Positions 14,391 through 62,192 of a DNA stretch of 64,000 nucleotides are shown one piece after another; position 1 is the first letter of the stretch, and each line of letters starts with the position of its first letter. The stretch covers positions 1 to 64,000 of the IMG/VR virus record IMGVR_UViG_3300011785_000001; one strand, 5' to 3'. The notes below the pieces were generated by a model. It was not told the origin of the DNA and ran no database searches. It was given only the letters and a program-made list of their open reading frames with translations. The position numbers and the translations under genes were made by a program. This DNA is from an uncultured virus (IMG/VR IMGVR_UViG_3300011785_000001). Lineage: Duplodnaviria > Heunggongvirae > Uroviricota > Caudoviricetes.

Positions 14391-16010
14391 TTAAATTATA
14401 AATGTATAACACATTCTTTTGTTAATACCCTCCGATATTTTAAGCATTATTAGCTCTTGAAGAACATCTGTTGGTATTAAATCTTCATCAATATCACTCC
14501 AATCAAAGTCCTCACAATAGATTCTATGAACACTGTGGATTTTGGTAATCTTATTGAAGTTAGAACGATACTTAGGTTTTATTTCTTTGTATTGTTTCTT
14601 AACTCCTGAAACTATTTCACAATATTTTACATCTACATATTCTCTTTTCATTCTAACAACCACCTTTCCTTTGTAATTAAATCAACACTAATCATATCTT
14701 TAACACATGATCGCACCAATAAATCTTCATCCTTGTGTTGTACACCCATTAGAGAATCTTCTAACACCATAAATTCAAACTCTACAGTGTAGTCAACTTC
14801 TAATTGCAACAATTTATCTAAGTTGTATTTATCAATCATTTGACTTCCTCTGAATCATATAACTTATCAGCATACTCTTGCAACGTACCATTAGTGTACT
14901 CATGAGTGATCAGTATATTGCCATCACTATTAGTGCAAAATAACACACCATCCTTCCAGAAATATGCTTTAAAGTTATCACCATCTTGCTCTACATGAAA
15001 CAAGTAGTAATCACCTTTAACTAATTCTGATACATCCTTAGTCATAAATTCATCATCAATTATTTCATTGATATTTTCATCAAATATAACATTCATTACC
15101 ACACCTTCTGCAATTCTAAAACTTTATACGGTAAACCTAAACTCTTCAGTAACTTAACACCACTCACACAAGGTTTATCTGGGTTATCATGACAACCCCA
15201 AGTTAACCCTTCTAAAGCTCTCATCTTAATGATTTGATAAGGGTCTGGCAGACAGCCATAGTTCTGAGAAATTTCTGTTGTTTCATTACCAAAGTTAATA
15301 GGGCAACCTTCACCCTTACAATCTCCTTGAGTACAATCTAAATCTAACATACTCCAGAATGACTCTTTAGATAACCTGTGTTTTAAGTAATCTTCTGAAA
15401 CAACATCTACATTCAAAACATCAATCTTTTTCATTCCACAACTCCTTTATTCAATAATAACACAAATGCCATCATACCATGCCTCTTTTATCTCATGTAT
15501 ATCATTCGCATAATCGCAATCATAAGTGTAAACTTCAACATCTCCATGTTTTGCTTTATGTTCTTCAAGAAGCTCTACTAATTCACTAATCTTCATATTA
15601 AACCTCCTTTATTAACCTGTGGAACATGTCTTTGGCAAAATTGTAGTTGTGTTCAAAGTATGGATTACACTTATTATCACTACAATAGTCAGCAATAAAA
15701 AACCAACATAGACTGTTGTGTCTTTCATTTAAGTAATCTTCTTGTGCTTGTAATACTCTTTTAAAACCGTATCTGTTGATTAAATCTACGGTAGTTACAT
15801 TGTGTTTGAATTTCACTATTAACTCCTACTTAGTATATTCCATGTATGTTTGCACTAAACAAAACACAAAGAATATAGCATACACAACACCAATAATAAT
15901 AGCTGATGTTAAATCTACACTAACAACATTGTTCTTTAGCAATACAAACAGAACAAACCCTGTTAACAACAGTAGCACATCAACAAACAAATAAAAATAT
16001 AAAAACATTA
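14391..16010 (-). CDS. Run of small hypothetical ORFs (14391-14663, 14648-14839, 14836-15102, 15096-15434, 15598-15816, membrane ORF ending 15826)
   Basis: Tightly packed or overlapping ORFs with AGGAG-type RBS; 15096-15434 is Cys-rich. Confidence 0.6.
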
Positions 16011-16119
16011 ACAACTCCTTTAAGTTAAATATGTAAACATTGTTATAGCACCAAACAAACAACAATACAATACCTATTTAATTAAATATTAAATTATTTA
16101 CATTGCTTAAGATTATTCT

Positions 16120-16460
16120 TATTGCTGTTAATGAACACAAACGATAGTGAAGTGTGAATGTTATAGCAATCATTAGAGACTGCTGTTGCAGACGATAATG
16201 CACTGTAGAGTATACTTAAAGTTATTCGATACAGAATATCCATTCTGTTAGCACCAAACAACAGTTACTTTATCCGATAGGATAACAATGTGTTGAATAT
16301 TCTAACTGTGTTCGACACTGTGAGAACTATTTTTGGTTATTCTTTAAGTATCCCTTTAGTTTTAGGGATTGTTGTTGCAATCAAACAAATCCCTTTTCCC
16401 TTTAGTGTTATTGTTAGTGTTGTCTGCACGATATTACTATCCGTAGGATGGTATTCTGTG
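16120..16460. repeat. Non-coding block related to 37740-37990 (candidate origin element A)
   Basis: 16126-16162 and 16357-16418 match 37744-37780 and 37929-37988 in the same order. Confidence 0.7.
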
Positions 16461-16610
16461 CTTATTAACTAACAGTGTTTCTCTTATAATAAAAATATTG
16501 TTCCTTAAGGATTTTTAGATTAAGTTGTTGTTTTTTAAGCTAATAAAATCAAGTCTTGTCAAGTTGAATATTAATTTCAAGAATGCTACACTTAAGTTGT
16601 AATAAATACA

Positions 16611-16640
16611 TTGACAAATTGACAGGTTTAATGCTACTAT
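16611..16640 (+). promoter_or_regulatory. sigma70-type promoter of helicase-like gene
   Basis: TTGACA-18 nt-TACTAT with TG extended -10. Confidence 0.6.
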
Positions 16641-16669
16641 GTTATTTTTAACAGTTACAGGAGGTTAAA

Positions 16670-18019
16670 GTGACAGAAGTTATAGTCTATGACGTACTTT
16701 GCGGTCAGGGTAAGAGCACTGAAATTATGAACTACATGTTAAACAACCCTTTTCAGAAGTATTGTTATATTGCACCATATTTAACAGAGTGTCATCGTTT
16801 TGCTGGTACTAAATTCGATGTTAAGGATTCTAGAAAGAAACCTTTATACGCTAACTATGATGAACGTATATATGACTATGTGGATAAAGAAGATGATATT
16901 CTAATTGAAAGGAAGAAAGTATTAAACTTTAGACACCCTGATAATAGAAATAAAGATGGTAGTAAGATAACTTCTTTGTGCAACCTTATGTCATCTGGTT
17001 GTAATGTGGTTTCAACTCATGCTCTTTTTACAGAGCTTGGTAGTAATGTGCTGTCTTGTGCTAAAGATTATACGTTGATAATTGACGAAACAGTAAACAT
17101 ATACGAGATTGATGCAAGTCTAAAAGATGTTTTGTGGTGCTTAAAACACAAGGTAATGTACTTGGATGAAGATGGTATGACACTTCGTTTTAATCGTGCT
17201 AATCTAGGTGCTGTTTCAGAGCAAGATGAAGATGCTGCTATTGGTAGTCGTTACGAAGATTTAGCATTCCAGTGTGATTTAGGGCAGTTGTTGTACATTG
17301 ACGGGAAGATTATTATTTGGGAGCTATCTGTTGAGTTAATTCGTGCATTTAAAAAAGTAATTATCTTAACCTACATGTTCAAAGGTAGTGAAATGTATAA
17401 CTACTTTCAGAAAAAAGGTATTGATTTTTCTTATGTAAAGCTTTCAAAAGAAAATGTTAAATCAGCAAAAGATGTTGCTCATTTGATAGAAGTTGTTGAT
17501 GATCATAAGTTAAATCTTGTTGGTGAACACCCTACAGCTTTGTCTGCTTCTGGGGTTAAGGGTTCTGAGAAATCCTCGAACAAACGTCCTCTTACTAAGG
17601 AGGCAACGAAAACAGCTCTAAAGAATAACTTGCATAACCTGTTTAATCAGAGATGGAAGGCGAAAGCTTCTGATCGTCTTTGGACTTGTTTTGACGATAC
17701 AAGAAAATTCATATCTAACGGTAAATACGATAAGCAATTTCTAGCTTTCAATTATAAGGCCACTAATGATTGGATTGATGTACATCATGTAGCATTCCTC
17801 TTGAATGTGTATATGAACCCTATGATTAAGAGAGCAGCATCGGATAGAGGATTGGATGCTTCAAAAGAAGTTGATGATCTACATGCAATCAGTACATTGA
17901 TACAGTTTTTATTCAGATCAGCAGTACGAAAAGGAGAACCTGTTAAACTGTACTTACCTAGTTCAAGGATGCGTGAATTACTGGAAAGATGGAAAAAGGG
18001 TGAGTTTGATAATGAGTAG
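16670..18019 (+). CDS. SF2 (DEAD-like) helicase / origin-binding-type protein
   Basis: CGQGKST Walker A, IAPYL, STHALF, LIIDE, motif VI-like QFLFRSAVRKG. Confidence 0.7.
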   Translation: MTEVIVYDVLCGQGKSTEIMNYMLNNPFQKYCYIAPYLTECHRFAGTKFDVKDSRKKPLYANYDERIYDYVDKEDDILIERKKVLNFRHPDNRNKDGSKITSLCNLMSSGCNVVSTHALFTELGSNVLSCAKDYTLIIDETVNIYEIDASLKDVLWCLKHKVMYLDEDGMTLRFNRANLGAVSEQDEDAAIGSRYEDLAFQCDLGQLLYIDGKIIIWELSVELIRAFKKVIILTYMFKGSEMYNYFQKKGIDFSYVKLSKENVKSAKDVAHLIEVVDDHKLNLVGEHPTALSASGVKGSEKSSNKRPLTKEATKTALKNNLHNLFNQRWKAKASDRLWTCFDDTRKFISNGKYDKQFLAFNYKATNDWIDVHHVAFLLNVYMNPMIKRAASDRGLDASKEVDDLHAISTLIQFLFRSAVRKGEPVKLYLPSSRMRELLERWKKGEFDNE

Positions 18020-18673: not shown

Positions 18674-20103
18674 ATGAGAGTTTATGTTGCTGTATGCTTT
18701 ACTGAGAATGAAAATACAAACTATTTCGAAGATTTTGATGATGTAATTGGTGTGTATATCTTAAAGAATCATGCAGAGGAAGCTGCTAGGAATTATATGA
18801 ATAAATTACTTGAAGAGACTGGTGTTCATTCAACATATCAGATGTTTGTTAAGGAGATTTAAAATGAAGTTTAAGCGATACTGTGAAGAAGTTGTTCATG
18901 AGTTTATCCGAAGAGGGGTTATTAAGATTGAATACAAAAACAATCAACCTGTTTTCAATTTCGACTTGCTCAGAACACCTCGTATTTCATACTACAACGA
19001 ACCGTTTCGGATGTCTGTAGGTGATGGTGCTTTTATGGTTTATCTAGGTGTTAAGGATGTGGTTTCATTTAATAAAGATGGAAACATTATCACTTTTAAT
19101 GTTAAAGATATTTTGAAATCTTATAAGGAGTTTTAAAATGGTACATAAATTAACACCAGAGTATTTGTTGAAAAACGGTTATATAAAAGTTGGTAGTAAG
19201 TCATATTGTGAATACTGGAAGAGAGGTGATGAAATTATCACTTTAAACACAGGTGAAACTCTATCAGAATACAATCGTGGTTATGAGGATGCTCTTAGAG
19301 CAATTAAAGTTAACCTAGAGCATTTTAAGAAAGATGTCTATAGTATTGAGATGATCTACGAAGGTTGTGATATAGATCGTTACGAAGGTGAGAGTGAGTG
19401 TGAAAAACTCTTGTTTAGTGAGATTTTAGGGGTGAATAAATGATTTCAATATTAATAGCTATTGGTTTAGTTGTAGTTATTTGTGCAATTGTCGGTTTGG
19501 TAGCCTTCTTCCATAAGTTGTTAGATATAGAATTATCTTTAGCACCTTATTCTAAAATTGTGATATGGTCGTATTGGAAATACTTTGTTTTCTGGTGGTG
19601 TATAATCTCTCCTATAGCTTTCTTTATTTCCGGATGCAATACTGAGTTTTTATTTAAATAATTATAAGGAGTTTTAAATGTCTTACGGTAAAATTATACC
19701 AACAAACAAGGTTGTTGATGAGGTTTATGATAAACATGTTAAACACAGTGATAATGGGTTATTAACAAATAAGTTGCAATACAATGTTAAACTTACAGTA
19801 GAGCAAGTTGCAGATATTATCTGTTTGTATATCTATGGAGCACCTGTATTACGTCTTAAAGACGTTTACGATTATAATGTAGATGGTGTGATTCACAGAA
19901 ACAGTTATAGAAACATTAAGATTCCATTCCAAACATCACGTAAGAAGAAGCTTGGTAAGATGGTTTTTACGTATGATAAAGAATTAGTTGAGAATCACTT
20001 TAACTCTTTACCAGAACATCTTAAAGCATTATCTGATGGGGTTATTCGTGAAGATCGTTTGGTGAAAGCTACAAAGATTCTTAAAAGTGAAATGTGGATT
20101 TAA
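18674..20103 (+). CDS. Run of hypothetical ORFs (18674-18862, 18864-19136, 19138-19443, membrane 19440-19661, 19678-20103)
   Basis: Consecutive ORFs with AGGAG-type RBS. Confidence 0.65.
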
Positions 20104-20125
20104 TTAAATATTAAATAGGAGAGTT

Positions 20126-28582: not shown

Positions 28583-29371
28583 TTGATGAAACACATCGTA
28601 AATAAGCACATACTTAATAAAAGAGATGAGGTGTTGGGCAAAGAGTTTGAAACAAATAACTCTGGAAGGTGTTTTGTTATAGATTACGCAGGTACAAATA
28701 ATGTTGCCGTAGCCTTTTACCAACCATTTTGCATTGTAAAATGTAGTATGACAAATTTGACAAAAGGTTGTGTTTCTAACCCAATGAAGCGAAATGTGTG
28801 TGGTAAGGGTTATCTTGGTGTCGGTAAATACAGTCCAAGTTTTAACACAAGGGAGTATAAGCTTTGGAAAAACATGTTGGAAAGAGTTTATTGTTTAAAT
28901 GTAAGGTACACAAGAATGAGTTATGAGGATGTTGAAGTCTGCGAAGAATGGCACAATTTCCAAAACTTCGCTGAGTGGTGTGAAACACAGAAATTCCTTA
29001 ATGCTAAAGATGATAAAGGTAATAAATATCAGCTAGATAAAGATATTTTAGTTAAAGGTAATAAAGTATATTCTCCTGAAACTTGTTGTTTTGTACCTCA
29101 TGAAATTAACAGTTTATTTATATTTGGAAAATCCAAAAGAGGAGAATTTGCTATTGGTGTTGGAAAGGTGAACAGTAAGTACCCAGCTTGTGTAAGTAAA
29201 AACGGAGAGACTGTTTATTTAGGTTTGTTTGAAACACCAAAGAAGGCTTTTGAAAACTATAAAAAGGTAAAAGAAAGTCATATTAAAGAGGTTTCCGAAA
29301 TATGGGAAGACCGTATTGATGGAAGAGTTTACAAAGCACTATTAGCTTGGGAAATAGAAGAAAATGATTAG
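28583..29371 (+). CDS. HNH-type homing endonuclease
   Basis: WKNMLER, VCEEWHNFQNFAEW, LDKDIL..GNKVYSPETCCFVP, C-terminal YLGLF AP2-like segment. Confidence 0.8.
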   Translation: MMKHIVNKHILNKRDEVLGKEFETNNSGRCFVIDYAGTNNVAVAFYQPFCIVKCSMTNLTKGCVSNPMKRNVCGKGYLGVGKYSPSFNTREYKLWKNMLERVYCLNVRYTRMSYEDVEVCEEWHNFQNFAEWCETQKFLNAKDDKGNKYQLDKDILVKGNKVYSPETCCFVPHEINSLFIFGKSKRGEFAIGVGKVNSKYPACVSKNGETVYLGLFETPKKAFENYKKVKESHIKEVSEIWEDRIDGRVYKALLAWEIEEND

Positions 29372-31948: not shown

Positions 31949-32920
31949 GTGGTTAAGAAGTTAGAGAGTATTAAAGTTAAAGCAGCGAACGGTAAAGGTG
32001 AAGTTTGGGTGTACGATGGTGATGTTGATTATCAAGTTGGATACAGCAGAAATCCTTCTTACTATTATAACGATGAGGGAGTTAGACGTAAGACAAGACC
32101 AAGAGTTCAACATGATGGTTTACTACAAAGAACTAAAGCTGTAAAGGGTGCTTATGCTGGTTCTACCTTATCTGCCAGTTTTAAAAACTTCGATAGGTGG
32201 GTAAGTTGGGCACAATCTCAGTTAGGGTTCATGTGTGAAGATAATGACGGTATATTATTTCACTTAGATAAGGATTTGCTTGGAAACGGAGATAAACACT
32301 ATAGTGAAGACACTTGTTGTTTCCTTCCTAATGTGGTTAATGGTTTGGTCAAAGTGTTGAATAACCCACATATTGAAAACGTTTATTGCATAAACACTGT
32401 TACCAAAACTTATATGGTTTCTGTGAATGGTAAGGATTTTACTTTTAATAGTTTAGACGAAGCCGTTGAACACAGTAAACGATCATTCTTGAATCGTTGT
32501 GAAGAAGTTTTAAAAGAAAAGATGGTTACACATTTAAGTAAAACTTACTGCGAGGATTTTGATAAAGCACGAGCAGAGTATGACTCAGCTAGAGTTAAGA
32601 ATGTGAGAAACAAGCTGGTAAATTTTGTTGCTGATGGGAAAACAAAAGGTCTGCCTAGAGGGATTGCGAGAAGTGGTAGTAAATATAGAATACAAATTTT
32701 GTTTGAAGGGAAGCGTGTTGCAGCTCGAACAGGTTCTTTTGATAAATTGAAAGATGCTGAAATTGAAGCTAATAGTATTTACCTAAACATTTGTAACAAT
32801 CTGGTTGATAAATACAAAGGTGATTCACTGGTTTCTAAAACTGTAGAATTTAAAAAATTAGTTAAGATGCAGGATAGTTTAACAAAAAATAGGGAGCTTC
32901 TAATGAGTATGTATTTTTAG
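31949..32920 (+). CDS. HNH-type homing endonuclease, flanked by ~70-bp imperfect direct repeats
   Basis: FKNFDRWVSW, FHLDKDLL..HYSEDTCCFLP, GLPRGI; repeats at 31857-31927 and 32917-32988. Confidence 0.75.
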   Translation: MVKKLESIKVKAANGKGEVWVYDGDVDYQVGYSRNPSYYYNDEGVRRKTRPRVQHDGLLQRTKAVKGAYAGSTLSASFKNFDRWVSWAQSQLGFMCEDNDGILFHLDKDLLGNGDKHYSEDTCCFLPNVVNGLVKVLNNPHIENVYCINTVTKTYMVSVNGKDFTFNSLDEAVEHSKRSFLNRCEEVLKEKMVTHLSKTYCEDFDKARAEYDSARVKNVRNKLVNFVADGKTKGLPRGIARSGSKYRIQILFEGKRVAARTGSFDKLKDAEIEANSIYLNICNNLVDKYKGDSLVSKTVEFKKLVKMQDSLTKNRELLMSMYF

Positions 32921-36393: not shown

Positions 36394-36441
36394 AGTGTCT
36401 TTCCTTTAAGTTAATGAAGCTTGTTTGCTTCCGATGAGTTC

Positions 36442-36469
36442 ATAATAGCAAATTTAAGAATCATTGCAA
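36442..36469 (-). promoter_or_regulatory. sigma70-type promoter
   Basis: TTGCAA-16-TATTAT with TG extended -10. Confidence 0.55.
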
Positions 36470-37005
36470 GCACTTTGATCAAACAATTTTAAAATAATAC
36501 TAAAAATATTGATAAATACATGAAATAACAGTGAATTTAATTGTTTATTTTATTAAATCTTTTATGAATAGCTTACTAAATAAGTTTATTTAGGCGTATT
36601 TCTGCATCTCTTTTATCATTAAACACAAGCTTTGCAGCAGTGAGACACAACAAAACAAGCTATTCACCAGTGAATGAAGCTATTTAGAGATTTATAGCTA
36701 TGTTTTTAGTACCTATAAATAGAACGTGTGTGTGAATAGCATAGAAACGGATATAAAAACAAGAGGGTTTTAATCTAAAAACAAGGATTTTTGTTATTTT
36801 TTAGTAAAAATCGAGGGATAAACGGTAAGCTTTGACCAAAATGGAATGACTGGTGAGTTTCTACCGAGAAGTCATTTTAGGGTAGGGGGTACTCCTCGGA
36901 ATCTGGATTTCACATATATAATTTTAAAATAATTCCTCATTCCCTAAAAATTTTTTATAAGGCTGGGAAGTTTTAGCAATAAACAAAAGAAAACACCTAA
37001 CACCA

Positions 37006-37650
37006 TTAAGATATTAAGTGTCTAATAAAGTCTACAAGTAATGATATAACTGTTAGTAAGAATATGGTTAACATCAAGCAAACACCAACAAATATCTTAG
37101 TATCAAACTTACTATAATCTATATCTTTATCTGCCACTATAGAATAGCAGTGAGCACTAATAATATAAAGTATTAAACATATTCCTACTACTACAAACGC
37201 CGTAGCTAAAATTACGGCTATGTTAATAACCACCTCCTATACAAAATAGCCCCCTACGACCTCAAAACTTTTCGATTTTATGGGTAAGCGTGGATATATC
37301 TGGAATATCTATAACAACATGTAACCACAGTAGAGAAACAAAACAAACACTATAACACTTAGCACCATAATACTATAACTATTCTTAGTCTTATAATCTG
37401 CATCTGATAAGATCAAGAATAGTACACTAATAAAAGATAAGCAGCATATAAAAGATATTACAGCTATTGTTAAGACTGTAGTTGTTATCATAATAATCTA
37501 CCCATAAATATTAACAAAAGAATGACCTAACATTGTAACAAAATAACCTAACCACAAAGCAATCAAAGCTGTTGCTAATACGCTATTTTTTAACATTGCA
37601 ATAAGTAAAACACAAACAAGAATAGCAACAACAAAACAAAGTAAAATCAT
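37006..37650 (-). CDS. Three small membrane-protein ORFs (37006-37233, 37309-37491, 37498-37650)
   Basis: Each has about two hydrophobic stretches. Confidence 0.55.
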
Positions 37651-37739
37651 TTTAAGCACCGGTACAATTTAATATTTAATTAAATATACTTTAGCAATAA
37701 AAAGAAGTCAACACATAAAACAATAATTAATTCTAGGGT

Positions 37740-38620
37740 CTGTTGTTAATGAAAACGAATGCAATGAAGTTTGAATGTTACAACACAATATACAACAAGG
37801 CGGATAACGCCGTAGTTGGAGATTAACTAAAGGGAACCCTCTTAAGAATACTATACTGCGCATAACACTGTTTAGAATACTGTCCTACGGACATTTAGTA
37901 CAAACAAGAATACAGCACAACAATACTATAGTTTTAGGGATTTTGTCTGCTGCAAACAATCCCTCTCCCTTTAGGGTTATTTTTAGTGCTCTTTTAGATA
38001 AAAGGTAAGGTGTCCCCTGTTGGTGAATTTTATAGAATTACGTTACAGAGAATTTGTAACAGAGTAGTATTTATTTTTGTGTCATGTTTAACATCACAAT
38101 ACTTTATAGGTGGGGTAATAGAAATCTAATAGAACGTCAATAGCACCCTACAAGGGTTATGAAGAATAACGTTAGAAAGTCTCAAAGGTAATACTATTAA
38201 GGGTTACAGGGATATTGTAAAGAATTATAAGGTGTTAATAACAAGAATACTCTTACACTACTTCTAATAATATTCTTATATCACTATTATTGCTAAAACA
38301 ACATCTCTTTATTCATATCTTTAATATAATAACATATTCCATTATTGTCTTTATCACTATCAACACTAACTATAACAATAACATACTCTTATTATTTCTA
38401 TTACCATATAATAGGAGGATTTTTATAGTGCTATTCTTCTAGTTACAATATAGTTACATATTAGGATAAATAAAAGTTACTCATAAAACCTCTTTAACAC
38501 TCTATTTGTTTTGGGGTGTTGAGAGGCGACAGCCGACCATCCCACCACTCTTTAAGATAAACCTAAAAGGTAAGTGATACATTTTTTATAACATAGGTAT
38601 ATGTATATAATACCCAATAA
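37740..38620. other. About 0.9-kb non-coding region, candidate replication origin B
   Basis: No ORF of 60 aa or more, shares blocks with 16120-16460, several hairpins, G-poor AT-rich tract, upstream of a helicase-like gene. Confidence 0.5.
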
Positions 38621-38633
38621 TGCCAATTTTTTG

Positions 38634-38662
38634 TTGCAATGCAAATCTAATACTGCTAGAAT
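38634..38662 (+). promoter_or_regulatory. sigma70-type promoter
   Basis: TTGCAA-17-TAGAAT with TG extended -10. Confidence 0.65.
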
Positions 38663-38702
38663 ACGTTTAGACGGGATTTTCGTAAATTACAGGAAAGATT
38701 AA

Positions 38703-40589
38703 ATGAGAGATTTAGAAGCCTTAAGTAAACAGTTAGGGTTTAGTGTTGTAGAACCACCTAGCGTTTTGAACAAAACAGTTCATGTCATAAGAGAAGGGTT
38801 ATACTACTTATCAGATATTGGTTGGAAGGATTTACCTGATAATTGCTACCTTAACAAACAAACATGTGGTTGTGGTGCGACCCATTTAGCCATTACTAAT
38901 GATGTAAACTATGTAATAGCATCACCCTATGTTCGATTGATTAACAACAAGGTTGAGCAACACAGTAATATTATACCAGTGTATTCTGATATTACAGATG
39001 GTGCAATTAAGAAGAAATACCTCAGTCAAAAGTCAGAGGGTTTGCCTATTAAGTTTATGACAACTTATGAGGGTGTTTCCAGACTGTTATCGTTTGAGTG
39101 GTTTAATCCAAAAGACTTTAAACTTATGGTAGATGAAAGTCATGATATAGTGAACTTCGGCTTATTTAGAAAAGAGGCTGTTAGTAATATTCTAACTAAC
39201 TTTTACCTGTTTTACTCTTATGTTTTTGTTACTGCAACACCTAATAAAGAGCACTTCCTACCTAAGCAATTGGTTGAAGTTCCTCACATAGAGTTGAATT
39301 GGAAGAGTGCTAAAACTGTTAAAATAAACATACAGAAAGCAAGTAAGAATGGTAATGACTTTATTGTAGAAAAGTGTCGTCAATTCCTTTATGGTGAGGT
39401 AGATGGCAATGCTCACATATTTTATAATAGTGTCAAAGAGATTGTTTCTGTTATCAAAGCTCTCAAGAAGCTACCAAACTACGATTCAAGTCAAGTGAAA
39501 GTTGTGTGTGCTGATAATGACTACAACAATCGTGCCGTTAAAAAAGAGGGATTAGATTTACTGTCTAAATCACTCCTAAATAGTAGAAAGATTAACTTTT
39601 ACACTAGCTGTGTTTTTGAAGGAGCTGATATTTACGATAAAGAGGGTAAGACATTCATTGTTGTTAATAACAAACGTAACAGTACGAAACTATGTATGAC
39701 TACCCTTGTACCTCAGATTTGTGGGAGGATTCGTGACAGTATTTATAACAGTGAAATCAACATGCTTGTTTGTGGTAATATTGATTGTGTTAAATACTCA
39801 AGAACACAGTGGTTTGAGATTGTTCTAGATAATATGATTGCTGCAAAAAGTGCTGTTGATAGTTTTATGTACACAAAGACTTTACCTAACAGTACGGCAA
39901 TCCTTAACCGTATGCGTAATAACGCCCTCTATGATCCATATTTGTTGGTGGATTACAATACTGGTGATATTTGCTTAAACGAGAGTGCCTTACATGCTGA
40001 GATGCAACGATATGATATTATTCACTCTCAGTATCAAATTCTATCAAAGAATGAGGATGAGTTTAAGAAGGAAGTGAGTAGTCTTTATGAAACCAACATT
40101 GTTGATGATGCTTTTGAAGGTTTGACTGGCTCATTTAAAAGTGTTGTTGATAAGGTTGTTGATTTTAGAGTGCTAATGCAAGAGTACATCACCTCAGTTA
40201 AGGATTTAGACTTGCAGAAATCATCTTTTATTGAAAATAACCACCCTTACTTAAAGTTGTATTATGAAGCTCTTGGTGAAGATAAAATTAAGGCTTTAAA
40301 GTATCGAAAGAAAGACGTTGAAAGAGAGTATTCTGTATTCAAACTGAAAGAGAGTAGATTCTTTGATGTTATCAAAAACATAAAAGTTGTTTCTGGTGAT
40401 ATTATTACTGTTAAAGAAGCCAAAGAGCTTGTTGACACTGCATACAAAACACTAGGAATTAAAACAAAGGTTACAGGAAAGACTTTTGAGGATTACTACA
40501 TTGTTGAGCCTAAGTTGGTTACAATTCAAGGCAAAAGACATAGAAGTTATAAAGTTCTCAGTGTTAAGAATGTGAATTTGCTTTACTAA
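38703..40589 (+). CDS. SF2 helicase-like / replication origin-binding-type protein
   Basis: Degenerate Walker A TCGCGAT, MVDESH, VTATP, IFYNSV, YTSCVFEGADI, QICGRIR. Confidence 0.8.
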   Translation: MRDLEALSKQLGFSVVEPPSVLNKTVHVIREGLYYLSDIGWKDLPDNCYLNKQTCGCGATHLAITNDVNYVIASPYVRLINNKVEQHSNIIPVYSDITDGAIKKKYLSQKSEGLPIKFMTTYEGVSRLLSFEWFNPKDFKLMVDESHDIVNFGLFRKEAVSNILTNFYLFYSYVFVTATPNKEHFLPKQLVEVPHIELNWKSAKTVKINIQKASKNGNDFIVEKCRQFLYGEVDGNAHIFYNSVKEIVSVIKALKKLPNYDSSQVKVVCADNDYNNRAVKKEGLDLLSKSLLNSRKINFYTSCVFEGADIYDKEGKTFIVVNNKRNSTKLCMTTLVPQICGRIRDSIYNSEINMLVCGNIDCVKYSRTQWFEIVLDNMIAAKSAVDSFMYTKTLPNSTAILNRMRNNALYDPYLLVDYNTGDICLNESALHAEMQRYDIIHSQYQILSKNEDEFKKEVSSLYETNIVDDAFEGLTGSFKSVVDKVVDFRVLMQEYITSVKDLDLQKSSFIENNHPYLKLYYEALGEDKIKALKYRKKDVEREYSVFKLKESRFFDVIKNIKVVSGDIITVKEAKELVDTAYKTLGIKTKVTGKTFEDYYIVEPKLVTIQGKRHRSYKVLSVKNVNLLY

Positions 40590-40595
40590 TACTTA

Positions 40596-40624
40596 TTGCA
40601 ACAACACACAACTTAATATATAAT
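40596..40624 (+). promoter_or_regulatory. sigma70-type promoter of the RNA ligase/PNK pair
   Basis: TTGCAA-17-TATAAT. Confidence 0.7.
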
Positions 40625-40656
40625 CAATTTTCAATCAAAAAGATAAAGGTGCCTAA

Positions 40657-41748
40657 ATGTCAAACCTAGTAGAAGATTTAAAGAGTGGTGTTATCAACCT
40701 TGATCACCTTGAGAATACACTACACATCAAAGTTAAAGAGTATGCTGACCGTATTGTATTAAACTACAATCAAATTGAAAGCCCTAAGAGTGATCCTTAT
40801 GTTATGCAATGTCGTGGGATTATTCTAGACAAGCATACATTTGATGTTATGTGTCTACCATTTGATAGATTCTTCAATTTAGATGAAGTTTACAACCACT
40901 CAAATATGATTGATTGGAGTAAAGCTAAATGCTATGAAAAAGTAGATGGTAGTTTGATTAAGATTTATCATGATGGTATGAAATGGTGTATTGCCACTCG
41001 TGGCACAGCCTTTGCTGAGAGTGACGTAAATGGTTTTCCTATTACATTTAAAGAGCTTGTATTGAAGTCTTTAGGTTGCTCTACAGATGAAGACTTCCAA
41101 GAGATCGCTAACGATTGTTTAGATTATGAAAACACATACTTAATGGAAGTCACAGCTAGAGAGAATCGTGTTGTAACAGCTTATGATGGATACAGTTTGT
41201 GGTGGTTAGCTACTCGAAATAAGTACACTGGTGAGTATTTAGATACAACGTCTAGCATCACCAACTTAGGGGCTAAGATTATTAAAAGCTATTCTTTTGG
41301 TAGTGTTTCTGATTGCGTCAAAACTGCCAGTGAATTACCAGACTTACAAGAAGGATATGTTTTGTATCAAGATGGTGTCCCGATGTGTAAGATTAAATCC
41401 CCAGCATATGTTGCTGTACATCACATCAAAGGGGAGGGTTTAAGTCCTAAACGTATTGCAGAACTTGTTTTAACTAACGAACAAGATGAATACTTAAAAT
41501 ACTTCCCAGAAGATCATCAGTATATCAACCCTGTAGTTTGTTCTTTGGAGCATCTTCTTCGTGCTATGCAGTATGTATTAGATGAAGTTTACGAAATTGA
41601 AGATCAAAAGACATTTGCTTTAGAGGTAAAAGATTATCCATTTAGTGCTGTGCTGTTTCAATGGAAAAAGAAAGGTGGTGATGTTGTTGACTTATTCCAC
41701 CAACAACCACTAAACTACAAGGTAAAGTTATTACTTGATTGTGTTTAA
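40657..41748 (+). CDS. rnlA: RNA ligase 1 (T4 RnlA-like)
   Basis: CRGIIL, PFDRFFN, EKVDGSLI adenylation motif, EGYVL, KIKS..Y. Confidence 0.9.
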   Translation: MSNLVEDLKSGVINLDHLENTLHIKVKEYADRIVLNYNQIESPKSDPYVMQCRGIILDKHTFDVMCLPFDRFFNLDEVYNHSNMIDWSKAKCYEKVDGSLIKIYHDGMKWCIATRGTAFAESDVNGFPITFKELVLKSLGCSTDEDFQEIANDCLDYENTYLMEVTARENRVVTAYDGYSLWWLATRNKYTGEYLDTTSSITNLGAKIIKSYSFGSVSDCVKTASELPDLQEGYVLYQDGVPMCKIKSPAYVAVHHIKGEGLSPKRIAELVLTNEQDEYLKYFPEDHQYINPVVCSLEHLLRAMQYVLDEVYEIEDQKTFALEVKDYPFSAVLFQWKKKGGDVVDLFHQQPLNYKVKLLLDCV

Positions 41749-41758
41749 GGAGACTGAT

Positions 41759-42670
41759 TTGAGTAAGTTAAAATTAATTATCACTGTTGGAATCAGTGCT
41801 AGTGGTAAAACAACTTGGGTGGATGATTTTCTTTACGGTAAAGACAGCTCTTCTTGGGTTAATATTAATCGCGATGACATTCGTTTTAATTTTTTGAGTT
41901 ATGCTGATGGGTGGGACACTTATAAATTCACCAAAGCAAAGGAAAATGAAGTTTCCAATGTTGAAATGCAACAGTTTAATGAAGCTGTAGAATATGGTAA
42001 GAATATTATCATATCTAACACAAATTTAAATCCAAAGATTCGCAATAAGTGGGTTAAGCTTGGTGAAGATAATGGCTATGTTGTTGAAATTAAATCATTT
42101 GACATTTCATTAGAAGCAGCTTATAAGCGTGATCAATTTCGAGGTAAGTTTAGTGTTGGGCGAGATGTCTTAAACCGACAATGGAAACAGTGGTTGGAAT
42201 TTAGTGGAAGTTACAAGTATGTACGAAACACTAAGTTACCAAAAGCTATTGTTGTAGATGTTGATGGGACTGTTGCTATTAAAGGAGATAGAAGCCCTTT
42301 TGATTGGAGTAAAGTAGGTCAAGACACCCCAAGAGGGTTTATTACCCTCTTGCTGTTGTCTTATTTGAAACAGTGGGAATCAGATAGTGTTATCTTCTTG
42401 TCTGGTCGAGATAGTGCTTGTCGTCACCAAACTTTAACTTGGTTGTCTAAGCACTTACACATCCCAATCTACAACATTAACTTGTTTATGCGAAAAGAGG
42501 GTGACATGAGGAAAGATAGTATTATTAAGTTGGAGTTATTTAAAGATCACATCGCTAATAATTACGATGTTTTAGCAGTGTTTGATGATCGACCTCAAGT
42601 TGTGGATATGTGGTATGATATTGGAATAGAAAATGTTATTTGTGTAGCAGATCAACGTATCAAGTTCTGA
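41759..42670 (+). CDS. pseT: Polynucleotide 5'-kinase/3'-phosphatase (T4 PseT-like)
   Basis: GISASGKTT, NRDDIR, DVDGT, SGR, FDDRPQVV; probable TTG start after AAGGAG. Confidence 0.92.
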   Translation: MSKLKLIITVGISASGKTTWVDDFLYGKDSSSWVNINRDDIRFNFLSYADGWDTYKFTKAKENEVSNVEMQQFNEAVEYGKNIIISNTNLNPKIRNKWVKLGEDNGYVVEIKSFDISLEAAYKRDQFRGKFSVGRDVLNRQWKQWLEFSGSYKYVRNTKLPKAIVVDVDGTVAIKGDRSPFDWSKVGQDTPRGFITLLLLSYLKQWESDSVIFLSGRDSACRHQTLTWLSKHLHIPIYNINLFMRKEGDMRKDSIIKLELFKDHIANNYDVLAVFDDRPQVVDMWYDIGIENVICVADQRIKF

Positions 42671-45900: not shown

Positions 45901-46213
45901 GTTAAAAAGAATTGAGCAAGTTTATATACAAATATTGCGAATGGAAGAAAGCTCAGGAAACATTCAAATATTTGTAAGGCTTAAACGTAAAGACGGTGTT
46001 GGGTTGTTTGGGGAAACGCTGGAGTATAATTGTTTTCAAACAAAACACCTAGATTATAAAGAGTGTTTAGAACGTGCTTGGTTTTCAGCAACGAGCGTTT
46101 GTAATTTCATTGGGTGTACACCAGAAGATATTGTTATTACAGGGTTGTCTAACGAAGATCAAGAGGTAATGAAGCAGGGGTTATCTATGTTTCGTGGGAG
46201 AAAGTTTAAATGA
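42935..46213 (+). CDS. Run of small hypothetical ORFs (42935, 43142, 43349, ~43581, 43913, 44375, 44753, 45011, membrane 45393, 45606, 45899)
   Basis: Consecutive ORFs with GGAG RBS; 44375-44749 has a GSHCSCYG motif. Confidence 0.7.
45838..45874 (+). promoter_or_regulatory. Terminator hairpin containing a promoter -35
   Basis: GGGGAG-TTGACA..-CTCCCC-TTTT then TATTAT. Confidence 0.65.
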
Positions 46214-46914
46214 AATACTTACGTGATTATATCAAACCAAATAACATTAAAGAAACTAAAGTTTTATCACGCTTAAACTACGATATTACTAAGTTTATCA
46301 AAGATTCTAAAGTTGTTAATACAAACACTCTTGTTACAGATGCTTTTGTTTCTGACTACAACAAACTACTTAATGAGTTATACATGCAAGGGTATTTAAC
46401 CTTAGCTGATCATGGTGCTAACGGTATTCGTATTGTTGAATCTTATTGCGATGAATGGGTTAATCAATTGAGTGACTGTGATAAATCTTATGTTGAACGT
46501 AAACGTAAAGATATTGCTCCGTTATTTACATTTGATACAGAGTTCCATGAAACAGAGATTGTTAATAGTGGTGGTATGGAGTTTGATACTCTAGTAGCTT
46601 TGAAATACTTAGGTAAGAAACGTAATGCTCTATCTCGTGGTATTGAGTTTAAATTAACCCTAGCTGACATGGCTCGTATAATGCGTTCTAAGCGATGTTA
46701 TTACTCTAATGTGCCTCTTACCATAGATGGGGTGAATAAGCTCACTATAGACCGTATAGACGCATCTATCGGGTATACAAAGGAGAACTCCTGTGCTTGC
46801 AGTAAACAAGTGAATGATTTGAAGAATAAACTTCTGGAGAATCAAGAATTGATTAAAGATATGAGTGGTAAGGAAATTAAGAAGATGCTATTGTCTTTAG
46901 CAGGGTTAATTTAA
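46210..46914 (+). CDS. HNH-like endonuclease domain protein
   Basis: RGIEFKLT..CYYS..LTIDRID..GYTKEN..C..VNDLK. Confidence 0.7.
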   Translation: MKYLRDYIKPNNIKETKVLSRLNYDITKFIKDSKVVNTNTLVTDAFVSDYNKLLNELYMQGYLTLADHGANGIRIVESYCDEWVNQLSDCDKSYVERKRKDIAPLFTFDTEFHETEIVNSGGMEFDTLVALKYLGKKRNALSRGIEFKLTLADMARIMRSKRCYYSNVPLTIDGVNKLTIDRIDASIGYTKENSCACSKQVNDLKNKLLENQELIKDMSGKEIKKMLLSLAGLI

Positions 46915-49843: not shown

Positions 49844-50000
49844 TTCATATTACTCCAATTTTTGCATAATAGTTATGCTTTGTATTTAATTAAATATTAA
49901 ATTAATTTGAATTGATAGTCAATACTTTATTTTAAGATTTCTTACAGACGTTAAAAGGGAGCTTAAAGCTCCATGTGTTGTTTACTTAATTCTCCACAAT

Positions 50001-58930: not shown

Positions 58931-59627
58931 TATCTTCCAAAACCTCCTTGTCATCGTATACCGTATCACTGTGTGATACATCACGGATATTTTGTTCTTC
59001 AACCAAACCTGACAAGTCCATTACCTTGAAGCCTTTACGCTTACGAACCTTTCCATTCTCATTAACTAAACAGTAGTAAGTTACACCATCAACTGTCTGC
59101 TCACTTGGAGTTAGGTTTTCTTTAGCTGGAGATTTCCACTTATCAAAATCTTCTTTGTCAGTTGTAAACTTCAACATATTATTCTCTACAACTAAATCTG
59201 TAGCTTTAATAATAATATCTAAGTCGAAGTGTGTGTACATGCTATCAAAGAACAATCCAATCTGTGACATCAAGAATTGTAAACGATCATGGTTAATATC
59301 CAATTCTGTTAAGAATTGCTCATCACACACTTTAAGTTGATATTGTAAATAAGACACCGTAAACAAAACATCTGCAATAGCATCTAATTCTTCAATCTGA
59401 TCTTTAGCAAAGAATACAGCATACTCTTTAATAAGCTCTTCAGATACAATATCAATCTGTAAATCAATACGTGCAGCTTTATCTTCTTCACTTAAGGTTT
59501 TAAAGTCACCACCAACTAAGGTGTTAAACAATACAACTTTTGGTGTTAAAACTTCGTAGTAATAATCTCTGAACGTGTCATTGATAACGATTTCTTCATC
59601 TTTCTCTGTATTCAAAATATTCTCCAT
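58920..59627 (-). CDS. MazG-like/all-alpha NTP pyrophosphohydrolase
   Basis: IVSEELIKE, EELDAIADVLF, NMLKF, NGKVRK. Confidence 0.7.
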   Translation of the reverse strand: MENILNTEKDEEIVINDTFRDYYYEVLTPKVVLFNTLVGGDFKTLSEEDKAARIDLQIDIVSEELIKEYAVFFAKDQIEELDAIADVLFTVSYLQYQLKVCDEQFLTELDINHDRLQFLMSQIGLFFDSMYTHFDLDIIIKATDLVVENNMLKFTTDKEDFDKWKSPAKENLTPSEQTVDGVTYYCLVNENGKVRKRKGFKVMDLSGLVEEQNIRDVSHSDTVYDDKEVLEDNEQ

Positions 59628-60535
59628 TAAATTAAACTGAAACCTTGTTTTGTCTGCTTACACAAAGCACCGCACTCACAACGGAAAACACTATAACCTT
59701 TAGCACTTGTATATACAAAGTTATTAGTGTCTGTAAGCTTATCAGAAGCACAAGAAGGGCACTTACTACGATCACCTAGTAATGTACCAAAGTTCACACT
59801 ACTGTTATCCCAGACTCTTAAACGCTTGTACAGAGCACGTAATGTAGGAATGTCACCAATATTGTAGTGTTTCATAGTTGTCAGTGCTTCAACATCACCC
59901 TCCATACACTTCATCCACAAACCCATACCTTCATGTTTAACTTTCTGGTAAGGTAGGTTTAAATACTGACACAAGAAGTCTAAATTCTTAAATGGCAGGT
60001 TAAACTTCTTACGAGCAATCGCCAAAGTGTCAATCATCTTGTATGGTGATGGGGGTTTCATCCCATATTTTAAGAACGAAGCATTAGCTTTAGCAATGTC
60101 AAATTTCTTAACGTTGTGCCCGATAACTACGTCTGCCTTATCAAACAAACTCCACATCTCTAACACTAAACGCTCATCATCAGCTTCTTTAGCTTCTGAG
60201 TGTGTTAATACACTAGCATTTACTTCACCATCGTTCCAAGCCCAAGCATGAGATAGCATGTGACCATCACGAATCTTAGCAACATAGGGAATGTTCTGTT
60301 GCCATTGCCCCCAATGAGCTGACACTGTAGGACTGGTCTCAATGTCCCAATACAAAATATTCAGTTGATTTTCTTCACCTTCAACAACTTCGTTCAAAGC
60401 ATCATATCGCTGTAGAAAACTGTTGATTGAACTCTTCTTTGTTTCCTCCCAACCAAACTCTCTACAAATAGCACGAGAGCTAAGACCTTGAGATCGTAGC
60501 TCCAATGTTTGCTTCTGCCACTCTTTCAATTCCAA
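59627..60535 (-). CDS. RNase H-like 3'-5' exonuclease with N-terminal HTH and C-terminal Zn ribbon
   Basis: WDIETSP, GHNVKKFD, IDTL, YNIGD, CPSC..CEC. Confidence 0.82.
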   Translation of the reverse strand: MELKEWQKQTLELRSQGLSSRAICREFGWEETKKSSINSFLQRYDALNEVVEGEENQLNILYWDIETSPTVSAHWGQWQQNIPYVAKIRDGHMLSHAWAWNDGEVNASVLTHSEAKEADDERLVLEMWSLFDKADVVIGHNVKKFDIAKANASFLKYGMKPPSPYKMIDTLAIARKKFNLPFKNLDFLCQYLNLPYQKVKHEGMGLWMKCMEGDVEALTTMKHYNIGDIPTLRALYKRLRVWDNSSVNFGTLLGDRSKCPSCASDKLTDTNNFVYTSAKGYSVFRCECGALCKQTKQGFSLI

Positions 60536-60766: not shown

Positions 60767-60863
60767 TCTTACTCTCCAACAATAACTTATACAATAGATC
60801 TTCCTGACCTTTTTTGGTCTTAGGTATAGATTCTACCTGAAGATTAATGCTAATGTCAACCAT
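60750..60863 (-). pseudogene. Orphan duplicate of the 3' end of gene 61608-62192, still an open 37-aa frame
   Basis: VESIPKTKKGQEDLLYKLLLESKNG versus VNEIPRTKIGRKNLLKELMFKEVNG. Confidence 0.75.
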
Positions 60864-61618
60864 TAATCATCCATTTCAATTGAAAAATTGCACAAGGCAT
60901 TATATACTTTTTCATCTATTTCTTCCTTGTACAATTCGGCAACAACTTTGATGTAAGACTCTTTAACCTCTTTATACTTTAAAAACGCCTCCTTGTAATC
61001 CTTATAGAAACCTACGTACCTTTTCTCACCAATTTTAGGGCGACAAACTTTAACCGTGTAACCACCGTCTTGCTCACTAACACCAAGAGGCAACTCACCT
61101 CTATTTGCCTTTGTTGATATTGTAAGAGTATTTATGTATTTTGGAACAAAGCAGCAGAAATCTGCCGTGTAAGTCCTGTTACCCTTCTTAAGTATATCCT
61201 TATCAAGCTCGTAACCCTTCCTCCTAAACCCCACCTGTTTGTCGCACCAATTAGCGAAATTAACAAACTTTAAGAAATCCGCACCACAAACAACATCTTC
61301 GTAACAAGGGAGGACTTTATTGTTTTCAACATTTGAACTTCTCGCTAAAACACCGCACCATAATCTGTAAGCCTTCTTTATATCAGACTTAGACATATTC
61401 AATGTGCTTATATCACCAATAAAAGCTTTAGTCATCTTAAACCTGTCTCGAAAACCCTTACCACTCTTCACATTATAATAGCTAGTGGTGTTTATATAAC
61501 CACTCTCAAATTCAACAGTAACTTTCTTAGCTCCCTGGTAATCAATAATCTTGTACTCTCCATAGATCGGGTGTATGAATTTCTCCCCAACTCTGTGCTT
61601 TTTAAGATTAGCCACCAT
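60863..61618 (-). CDS. HNH-type homing endonuclease (same family as 28583 and 31949)
   Basis: NFANWC, YELDKDIL..GNRTYTADFCCFVP, GELPLGV. Confidence 0.8.
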   Translation of the reverse strand: MVANLKKHRVGEKFIHPIYGEYKIIDYQGAKKVTVEFESGYINTTSYYNVKSGKGFRDRFKMTKAFIGDISTLNMSKSDIKKAYRLWCGVLARSSNVENNKVLPCYEDVVCGADFLKFVNFANWCDKQVGFRRKGYELDKDILKKGNRTYTADFCCFVPKYINTLTISTKANRGELPLGVSEQDGGYTVKVCRPKIGEKRYVGFYKDYKEAFLKYKEVKESYIKVVAELYKEEIDEKVYNALCNFSIEMDD

Positions 61619-62192
61619 TAACCTCCTTAAACATTAACTCTTTTAACAGATTTTTTCTTCCAATTTTTGTTCTTGGTATTTCGTTGACAACCACCCCAAA
61701 AGACAATAATACCTCAAGAACTTTTTCATCAGATTTAGAAGTTAAAATGTAATCTTTCATCTTCTTAGCTTCTTCAAAAGAGATATTGTTTCTTGCAGCG
61801 TAAGTTAATGCACCATGACAAGATTTACACACAACACGCAAGTCATCTTCTGAAACAATGCAAATACTCTCAAAGAAACCTTGTATATCAGAAACCTGTT
61901 TCAGTGAATATGTACCACCATTTTTGTGATCAACTTCAATCTCTTTCATTGGAAAGTCTTTATTACAAATCTCACACTCAGCGCCCATCACAGTAGGCTT
62001 AGTGTTTCGTGGCTTACCGTAGTTAGGGTTTGGAATCTGCTTCTTAACCTTCTTTAATAGCTTAAGTTTCACAGGGTTTTTAGACCAAGCCAATCGAATA
62101 CAACCTCGAATGTATGAAAAGTACGCACTTTCTGTTTTCCATATTTCAGGGTTTTCTTCAAGAATCTTCTTAATCTTGTTATCAATACTCAT
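61608..62192 (-). CDS. HNH endonuclease
   Basis: CEIC..IEVDH..LRVVCKSCH. Confidence 0.8.
   Translation of the reverse strand: MSIDNKIKKILEENPEIWKTESAYFSYIRGCIRLAWSKNPVKLKLLKKVKKQIPNPNYGKPRNTKPTVMGAECEICNKDFPMKEIEVDHKNGGTYSLKQVSDIQGFFESICIVSEDDLRVVCKSCHGALTYAARNNISFEEAKKMKDYILTSKSDEKVLEVLLSFGVVVNEIPRTKIGRKNLLKELMFKEVNGG

Follow-up and report, generated by a model that had tools for sequence, protein, structure and literature searches.

The first 64,000 nucleotides of an uncultured virus genome (IMG/VR record IMGVR_UViG_3300011785_000001), a stretch hereafter called the window, contain two related non-coding blocks on the + strand, b1 (16121-16479) and b2 (37741 to ~38035). Each is followed by a gene for a predicted superfamily 2 (SF2) helicase-like ATPase, and the question raised by this locus is what the twin blocks do. 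A preliminary description had read them as two replication origins, each with its own initiator, or alternatively as a conserved non-coding RNA (ncRNA) beside these ATPases. The window is the first part of a 95,415-base record with a CheckV completeness of 98%, and a scan of 113 open reading frames (ORFs) against PHROGs indicated a myovirus-type genome of lytic type. The blocks were found to be twin copies of one element that is conserved in three phages. It is fairly probable that the element functions as a + strand RNA structure. The preliminary alternative, a conserved ncRNA beside these ATPases, fits the data. The best explanation overall, in which we place slightly less than even confidence, is that b1 and b2 are paralogous structured-RNA copies acting as a cis-acting early leader.

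The relationship of the two blocks was measured by alignment. The two regions share a 5′ hairpin and then a 3′ block, in the order given in the preliminary description. The 5′ hairpin, named H1, was identical at 36 of 47 aligned columns (16123-16169 versus 37741-37786), and the 3′ block at 54 of 65 columns (16357-16420 versus 37929-37988). Local BLAST of the intergenic regions (~3.5 kb) recovered the 3′ block at E = 7e-10 and H1 at E = 2e-4. When up to three mismatches were allowed, a 22-base pattern of the 3′ block matched only these two sites in 64 kb (expected number, 0.02), and two or more matches were obtained in 0 of 100 shuffles. The H1 covariance model R1 (alignment A6) gave 78.7 bits for b2 and 76.0 bits for b1 in the 95,415-base genome, the next best match reaching 13 bits. 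The preliminary description had named occurrence of the shared blocks at unrelated loci as a point that would speak against it; no such copy was found elsewhere in the genome with model R1, so on this point it was not refuted. Its inverted motif was also confirmed. The reverse complement of 16441-16458 agreed with 37874-37891 at 16 of 18 bases, part of this match arising because the motif core is a palindromic hairpin stem.

The same element pair was detected by pattern scans in two more IMG/VR phages, G001 (97.8 kb, with direct terminal repeats) and G002 (93.4 kb). One b1-type and one b2-type copy were present in each of the three genomes (alignments A2 and A3). The spacing of the copies was 21,618 in the window genome, 21,449 in G001 (copies at 50515 and 71964) and ~20.0 kb in G002. 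Model R1 was run on G001 and the window genome and showed just two copies in each; in G002 the pair was recognised by pattern matching and BLAST. Contigs of viral, metagenome and genome collections were scanned with exact and degenerate patterns, and no true members beyond those of G001 and G002 emerged. Four metagenome, two genome and eight further viral stretches were rejected, the outer stem being missing and no related gene context being present; they were below significance or scored 14-32 bits, compared with 76-80 for true copies. The nearest named relatives are Acinetobacter phage Phab24, 'Edwardsiella' phage ET-ABTNL-9, 'Vibrio' phage VH-8 and Psychrobacter phage D'Alembert. Model R1 gave nothing credible in these four (best E = 0.11), and a 15-bit match in a gap of Phab24 was discarded after inspection by eye revealed no resemblance. 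A search for related loci with either ATPase alone found nothing. Four DNA metagenome runs contained many contigs with 80-99% likeness to the b2 region, which shows that uncultured relatives commonly have the element; the summed depth in these runs peaked over the non-coding stretch 37574-38041. Judged from the relatives, the host is probably Acinetobacter-like or another member of the Moraxellaceae.

H1 (16121..16170 in b1, and its paralogue at 37741..37786 in b2, both on the + strand) is a hairpin of ~50 nt. From base to tip, an outer stem of 6-8 pairs leads through an internal loop to a middle stem of 4 pairs, which a second, G/A-rich loop separates from the apical stem of 2 pairs. The hairpin abounds in G-A/A-G oppositions, and the minimum free energy (MFE) fold of the b1 copy had z = -2.9. 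The internal loop, UAAUGA versus GAAUGUU, can be drawn as A-G, A-U, U-A, G-A and A-G. In b1 the middle stem is ACAC/GUGU and the apical stem AC/GU, with a GAUA loop; in b2 the two stems are AAAC/GUUU and AU/AU, and the loop is GCA. The preliminary description had picked out GCA and GATA, which are the apical loops of H1 in b2 and b1, respectively. Over the six sequences, the 14 canonical pairs of H1 were formed in 84 of 84 cells. Three pairs were changed on both sides between b1 and b2 (C-G to U-A, C-G to A-U and C-G to U-A), and one further pair is G-U in b1 and G-C in b2. The remaining differences between the b1 and b2 hairpins lie in the apical loop or turn an A-A opposition into G-A. In slid controls, with the 3′ partners shifted by 1-3 columns, pairing was 15-59% and there were no compensatory pairs.

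A second hairpin, H2, starts 0-6 nt after H1. In b1 (16171..16200, + strand) it has an outer stem CAUUA/UAAUG, a G/A internal loop and an inner stem CUGC/GCAG (MFE z = -2.6), and in b2 (37793..37818, + strand) an outer stem CAAC/GUUG and an inner stem GGCG/CGCC (z = -3.5). The same two-tier MFE hairpin was obtained in all six copies, with z of -2.6 or lower in five of them, and the inner stems were of four kinds (CUGC/GCAG, GUAGAU/AUCUAC, GGCG/CGCC and CUAC/GUAG). H1 and H2 together span ~80-88 nt as two adjacent irregular hairpins in 6/6 copies.

Downstream of these hairpins the two blocks diverge before meeting again in the 3′ block. The central variable domain of b1 (16201..16356, + strand), defined by the consensus fold of the three b1 orthologues, contains a hairpin UAUCC-GAUA-GGAUA with one compensatory change, A-U to G-C, in G002. 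The conserved 3′ block of b1 (16357..16420, + strand) forms a hairpin of seven pairs, AGGGAUU (16364-16370)/AAUCCCU (16388-16394), whose loop varies in length and sequence, and a conserved tail UCCCUUUAG.GUUAUU.UUAGUG follows. This stem never varies informatively, and so the 3′ block gives no covariation evidence. A long terminal hairpin (16409..16477, + strand) was drawn from the consensus fold, in which a change on one side of the stem still leaves a G-U or A-U pair on the + strand and a broken pair on the - strand. The likeness of b1 to G001 and G002 ends sharply at 16479, just past this hairpin. In b2, the central domain (37827..37974, + strand) is closed by CUAAAGGGA (37827-37835) and UCCCUUUAG (37966-37974), and holds three AGAAUAC repeats and the hairpin AGGGAUU (37936-37942)/AAUCCCU (37958-37964). 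One point of the preliminary description had to be corrected: in b2, the TCCCTTTAG tail is partnered by CTAAAGGGA at 37827-37835. In G001, a 163-base deletion takes the whole b2 central domain except its 5′ arm and keeps H1, H2 and the downstream hairpin. The same deletion was seen in the freshwater metagenome run X3 (joint 37833>37997), and therefore long and short forms of the element circulate. These results indicate that the conserved core consists of two adjacent irregular 5′ hairpins followed by the 3′ hairpin and its tail, the middle being variable and deletable. A weak hairpin with a U-run (38004..38036, + strand) is kept in the three phages, and a scan flagged the homologous site in G002; it is a possible 3′ end of the b2 RNA.

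Folding energies distinguished the two strands. The whole b1 fold had z = -5.2 against shuffles. The consensus fold of the three b1 orthologues reached -60.5 kcal/mol with 91 pairs on the + strand, compared with -49.7 and 80 pairs on the - strand, one-sided substitutions being absorbed as G-U on the + strand and breaking pairs on the - strand. For H1 and H2 together, RNA folding gave -22.0 and -18.1 on the + strand, the corresponding values of the - strand being -15.1 and -11.4. Calculated with DNA parameters, these folds were weak and nearly symmetric (-9.6 and -10.7 versus -9.0 and -8.1). Moreover, the G/A-rich loops would become pyrimidine mismatches on the opposite strand. The fold thus belongs to the + strand, where it is accompanied by compensatory changes. 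Rfam 15 gave 0 matches in the 64 kb at the gathering threshold, and we would class the element among the structured non-coding elements of phage early control regions.

The genes behind the elements were then compared. P0001 (16670..18019, + strand), probably a YonV-family SF2 ATPase, opens the first rightward early block. It matched phrog_2467 (E = 6e-65) and was 26% identical to SPbeta YonV over 98% of its length (tblastn). PF27199 (YonV_C) was precomputed on 119 of the 120 P0001 homologues listed and on the nearest Atlas clusters, which are named YonV C-terminal Rossmann-like domain proteins, and P0001 was assigned through these. Its predicted structure (pLDDT 88) had its best Foldseek matches in XPD/DinG (E = 3e-8). 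P0002 (38703..40589, + strand), which opens the second rightward early block, is an SF2 helicase-like protein of a family named DEAD/DEAH-box helicase in the sources. Its model (pLDDT 87) best matched Lhr, BLM/RecQ and DEAD-box proteins (E = 1e-9). Walker A and DExx/DExH motifs are present in both translations and the models have a two-RecA-domain helicase fold, so that both ATPases are predicted to be SF2 helicase-like, as the preliminary description had proposed. Its further label, origin-binding-like, found no support. No UL9-like protein was present among the Foldseek matches listed, a search that did not include direct comparison with herpesvirus UL9-type origin-binding helicases. Homology between P0001 and P0002 was not detected, BLASTP giving E = 0.32 and profile-profile comparison a probability of 1.8%, with only the region from P-loop to DExx aligned. 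Sequence searches of the PDB with the ATPases yielded nothing useful. Metagenomic homologues of the ATPases were 52-84% identical. PADLOC assigned no defence family to P0001 or P0002, and for the G002 helicase described below only a generic UvrD/GajB likeness was seen.

Behind b1, a YonV-like gene was present in 3/3 phages, the protein being 31% identical in G001 and 24% in G002. Behind b2, the window has P0002 followed by a T4 Rnl1-like RNA ligase (40657-41748, + strand) and a polynucleotide kinase-phosphatase (41735-42670, + strand); G001 has an Rnl2-type RNA ligase and then a YonV-like gene; G002 has a UvrD-type SF1 helicase. A helicase-superfamily gene was therefore the first or second gene after the element in all six cases, with the family changing and H1 nearly invariant. 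The downstream ATPases are hypervariable, are replaced non-orthologously and are not cognate partners of the elements. Conservation of the element is independent of any particular ATPase. The b2 slot is filled by non-orthologous genes at L007 3924-6034, at L006 553-2073 (- strand) and at 38703-42670 of the window, and looks like a cassette-exchange hot spot for helicase and RNA-repair genes.

How might such an element act? The coding strand switches from - to + at each of the two loci, which agrees with the divergence of transcription noted in the preliminary description. Two rightward early blocks follow on the + strand, at 16.7-33 kb and 38.7-49 kb. They encode a NinI-like phosphatase, a methyltransferase, PhoH, a ClpP-like protease, HNH endonucleases, a protein with an Srd-like anti-sigma domain, and the Rnl1-type RNA ligase and polynucleotide kinase-phosphatase, and the gene content of both blocks is typical of early or host-takeover functions. 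Each element lies in a divergent control region heading one rightward early block and would be read from the + strand. The leader RNA would act in cis on the transcribing RNA polymerase, as HK022 putL/putR do, and would carry transcription through the long early blocks. By analogy, a cis-acting leader or antitermination role would be the single most likely mechanism, one that we put forward tentatively. That the element is transcribed, where its RNA starts and ends, and how it acts are points that we infer.

HK022 put sites occur in two copies per genome after early promoters, are ~70 nt long with two stem-loops that have bulges and non-canonical pairs, and make RNA polymerase read through terminators at least 10 kb away without a protein factor (PMC9378689). 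The present element resembles putL/putR in having two related copies per genome, each past an early control region; in having two adjacent stem-loops with bulges and non-canonical pairs, here H1 and H2 in 6/6 copies, a likeness of architecture only; and in that the copies differ in sequence and keep the fold, with long operons downstream. The core is ~85 nt here compared with ~70 nt in put, and 200-270 more conserved nucleotides lie behind it. Unlike in put, both copies point the same way and no upstream sigma-70 promoter was found; put-like activity is suggested here by analogy. The host is probably Acinetobacter-like and not E. coli. No sequence likeness to put was detected, the search on this point being the Rfam scans of the + strand, which gave no match and in which the presence of a put family was unchecked; the likeness to put is therefore architectural only. 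The nutL/nutR sites of lambda are also twin RNA signals heading the two early operons of a phage. They are short, with a 15-nt boxB hairpin and boxA, and need the N protein, whereas H1 is a 50-nt irregular hairpin. An N-like gene and a boxA-like motif were not seen here, no search having been aimed at them. The literature that surfaced on Phab24, YonV and HK022 put held no description of the element, no search having been aimed at the element itself.

Several observations weigh against a transcribed leader. Upstream of H1, none of the six loci showed a convincing + strand sigma-70 promoter. The first downstream genes have strong promoters of their own, so that no upstream leader is needed. A sigma-70-like promoter of the YonV-like gene lies 3′ of b1 (16611..16640, + strand; TTGACA-18-TACTAT, TG-extended), the YonV-like gene of G001 is preceded by the same promoter hexamers, and P0002 has one at 38634..38662 (+ strand; TTGCAA-17-TAGAAT, TG-extended). 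The whole b2 fold was no better than shuffled sequences (z = +0.27). The covariation rests on six related sequences, in effect on one ancient split between b1 and b2. G-A pairs or oppositions and GNA/GNNA loops are stable in single-stranded DNA too, and the inverted sharing of the 18-base motif suits a DNA site better than an RNA. With Rfam at E values up to 5, four sub-threshold, chance-level matches were obtained around b1 and none around b2. Among the sequencing runs matching 36400-40600, no RNA runs were listed.

If the + strand RNA is functional, it could also work apart from the transcribing polymerase. A stand-alone, trans-acting ncRNA that works with the interchangeable adjacent helicase and RNA-repair genes, and which might act as substrate, as cofactor or as decoy when phage and host are in conflict at the level of RNA, is rather unlikely in our estimate. 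Such an RNA would be consistent with the helicase-superfamily gene after 6/6 elements, its family changing, with the RNA ligase in 2/3 b2 loci (Rnl1 with polynucleotide kinase-phosphatase in the window, Rnl2-type in G001), with the sharp end of b1 conservation at the terminal hairpin, with the hairpin and U-run behind the b2 core, and with the separate promoters of the downstream genes. However, no promoter for it was identified, conserved complementarity to the mRNAs of neighbouring small proteins was not found, and specific recognition of a nearly invariant H1 by helicases of no common specific family is hard to picture; synteny alone could account for the constant helicase neighbour. Comparable weight, again on the unlikely side, is given to a new phage RNA class tied to the helicase slot or an R-loop-forming primer RNA of helicase-requiring auxiliary origins. 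A helicase-slot RNA could be processed, remodelled or protected by the adjacent helicase/RNA-ligase cassette, and could serve as a decoy or sensor against host defences. A functional + strand RNA of some other role is distinctly unlikely. The 3′ block might instead encode a small hydrophobic peptide (ORF 16290-16472, 60 aa), a type I toxin like that of yonT/SR6. The frame is open, a Shine-Dalgarno-like AGGA precedes its GTG start, and in the hairpin loop b1 and b2 differ by an indel of 3 bases. In SPbeta, yonV shares one operon, yonS-T-U-V, with the yonT/SR6 type I toxin-antitoxin pair (PMC5848175). The gene of P0001 instead opens an early block, and its genome is that of a lytic-type myovirus. 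In G001 an indel of 2 bases breaks the frame, in G002 the stop lies elsewhere, b2 has no canonical start giving more than 21 codons, and the b1/b2 differences in the 3′ block, read from the sequence, are 1 synonymous versus 4 non-synonymous. With the frame broken and most changes non-synonymous, coding by the b1 3′ block is very improbable. A type I toxin-antitoxin arrangement was also considered, since small membrane ORFs are present, and was rejected: 13-base complementarities to neighbouring genes are absent in G001 and G002.

The remaining explanations place the function in DNA or in its replication. The elements might be replication origins or single-strand initiation signals, in which a + strand primer RNA (R-loop) or a single-stranded DNA hairpin would prime, or would load the helicase encoded alongside. 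T4 oriF/oriG and ColE1-type origins consist of a promoter and then a structured or R-loop-forming primer RNA; T4 has more than one such origin per genome, and its SF2 helicase UvsW acts on such R-loops. Like these, the present element is non-coding and occupies a control region between genes. Both copies stand where the coding strand switches, and b1 coincides with the global minimum of the cumulative GC skew, a skew that mirrors gene orientation; GC skew follows the coding strand, so it cannot decide for or against an origin. A helicase gene behind every element, a nearly invariant block past b2 (~38270-38470) that is AT-rich and bears repeats, the stability in DNA of G-A pairs and of GNA/GNNA loops, and a D'Alembert gene annotated as a replication initiation protein directly upstream of its YonV-like gene would suit an origin as well. 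Unlike in the T4 and ColE1-type origins, an initiator and a primase-helicase are encoded elsewhere and the adjacent helicases are not conserved. The separate replication and nucleotide-metabolism module (49.5 to 80 kb, - strand), with DNA polymerase I pieces, ribonucleotide reductase and thymidylate synthase, contains a dedicated primase-helicase (71493-73394, - strand) and a lambda-O/DnaD-like initiator (79212-80111, - strand) ~40 kb away, and three 18-bp palindromic copies accompany the initiator. A cognate origin-initiator pair would not be expected to combine a nearly invariant H1 with an ATPase of 24-31% identity or of a different family, and the ATPase genes have sigma-70-like promoters of their own. 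No regular iteron array occurs in the shared blocks (AGAATAC has five irregularly spaced copies, in b2 only of the two blocks, and 51 in the genome), and the AT-rich block has no counterpart past b1. The DNA-parameter folds are weak and hardly strand-asymmetric, while conservation follows a strand-specific fold that includes G-U pairs. Two origins with their own initiators, as first proposed, are not supported, and origins or initiation signals of any of these kinds are unlikely. A duplicated double-stranded DNA control region, comprising promoters and operators of divergent units with hairpins that are incidental or protein-binding palindromes, is improbable. Leftward sigma-70-like promoters and a shared AT palindrome do lie directly beside both blocks, one motif is shared inverted, and TGTTAA of H1 reads as a -35-like TTAACA on the - strand at several loci, a match that the scan did not flag in the b1 block of the window. 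However, three compensatory pairs, a G-U/G-C change and H2 inner-stem swaps are unexpected for duplex protein sites, folding is strand-asymmetric, and elements of 300-360 bases are far longer than a promoter.

If the cis-acting leader is the right explanation, it would have a wider meaning. Among cis RNAs able to reprogram RNA polymerase with no protein factor, put is the main case worked out in detail. Another two-hairpin element, unrelated and again in a twin layout, would make this strategy more general and would add a compact new RNA; it would come from a different group of phages, one often met in fresh water, in wastewater and in the faeces of animals. Should the elements prove to be origins, they would exemplify origins based on structured RNA or on single-strand signals in a phage that is large and lytic. 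Independently of the mechanism, the nearly invariant folded element stands next to a slot that swaps three helicase families and two kinds of RNA ligase, which points to a function that needs 'a helicase here'.

The DNA around the elements has further features. Past b2, 520 bases of further conserved non-coding DNA (38037..38556, + strand) have no b1 counterpart. Within them, the AT-rich block of ~200 bases at ~38270-38470 is nearly identical in the three phages, its flanks being only 75-80% alike; it contains repeats AATAACATAYTC and TATATCACTATT-type repeats and no conserved ORF, and a promoter array, an unwinding element or a second RNA are candidates for its role. A GC-rich two-tier hairpin (GGGGUG..GGC-GACA-GCC..CAUCCC) stands in the AT-rich DNA at 38508-38555, ~80 bases upstream of the P0002 promoter, and is kept in G001 and absent from G002. 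A 36-base motif at 16480-16515, with the palindrome TCCTTAAGGA followed by a T-run, lies ~150 bases upstream of the YonV-like gene. It is shared at 89% with ET-ABTNL-9 (L002 ~2825-2860), whose YonV-like protein is 60% identical, and the motif is part of the module of the YonV-like gene and not of b1. Candidates for an intrinsic terminator at the 3′ block were only weak and non-conserved. Two short motifs that we take to resemble promoters of single-subunit (T7/T3-type) polymerases were among the rejected readings, and no RNA polymerase was present among the 113 ORFs scanned.

On the leftward side, an AT-only, palindrome-containing motif TATTTAATTAAATATTAAAT (16075..16095, strand unassigned) stands just left of b1. 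This motif of 19-20 bases has a perfect 14-base palindromic core TATTTAATTAAATA, extended by TTAAAT, and four copies in the genome (16075-16095, 37666-37686 (inverted), 49883-49903 and 20097-20115). At 37.7 kb and 49.9 kb it directly follows the -10 of a leftward TTGACT-17 promoter, and at 20.1 kb it lies 8 bases upstream of a ribosome-binding site; it may be an operator or mark a phage-specific promoter class. The leftward sigma-70-like promoter beside b2 (37683..37711, - strand; TTGACT-17-TATATT) serves small membrane-protein genes and is kept in G001 and G002. Beyond both control regions, the leftward genes begin with runs of very small ORFs (53-75 aa; 15826-16013 and 37006-37659, - strand) that are strongly hydrophobic and partly conserved in G001 and G002. 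In Phab24, the 900-base gap upstream of the helicase gene, a P0002 homologue, holds two copies of a different hairpin motif, TATATTGTTC-GCTAA-GAACAATGGATA (L004 2100-2130) and TATATTGTTG-GTGA-CAACAATGGATA (L004 2226-2252), the stem of which shows a compensating change between the copies. Relatives may thus have non-homologous structured elements at the same position.

The 18-base motif with the palindromic core TGGTAAATTTACCAC occurs in three copies inside or just upstream of the lambda-O/DnaD-like initiator gene (L037 16204-16221, 16247-16264 and 16638-16655; genome 79703, 79746 and 80137), and is a candidate for the real origin of the phage or for an operator. Structural genes were located by the PHROG scan at 83-95 kb and 1-12.6 kb on the - strand. 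No tRNA or tmRNA was found within the 64-kb window, and tRNA-Met and tRNA-Arg lie outside it at 66.5 kb. The genome has at least six HNH-type homing endonuclease genes, among them those at 28583-29371, 31949-32920, 46210-46914, 60863-62192 and L037 7355-7951. Some of them are located between the DNA polymerase I pieces, the exonuclease part of which lies at 59627-60535 and the polymerase part at 68451-70835 of the genome.

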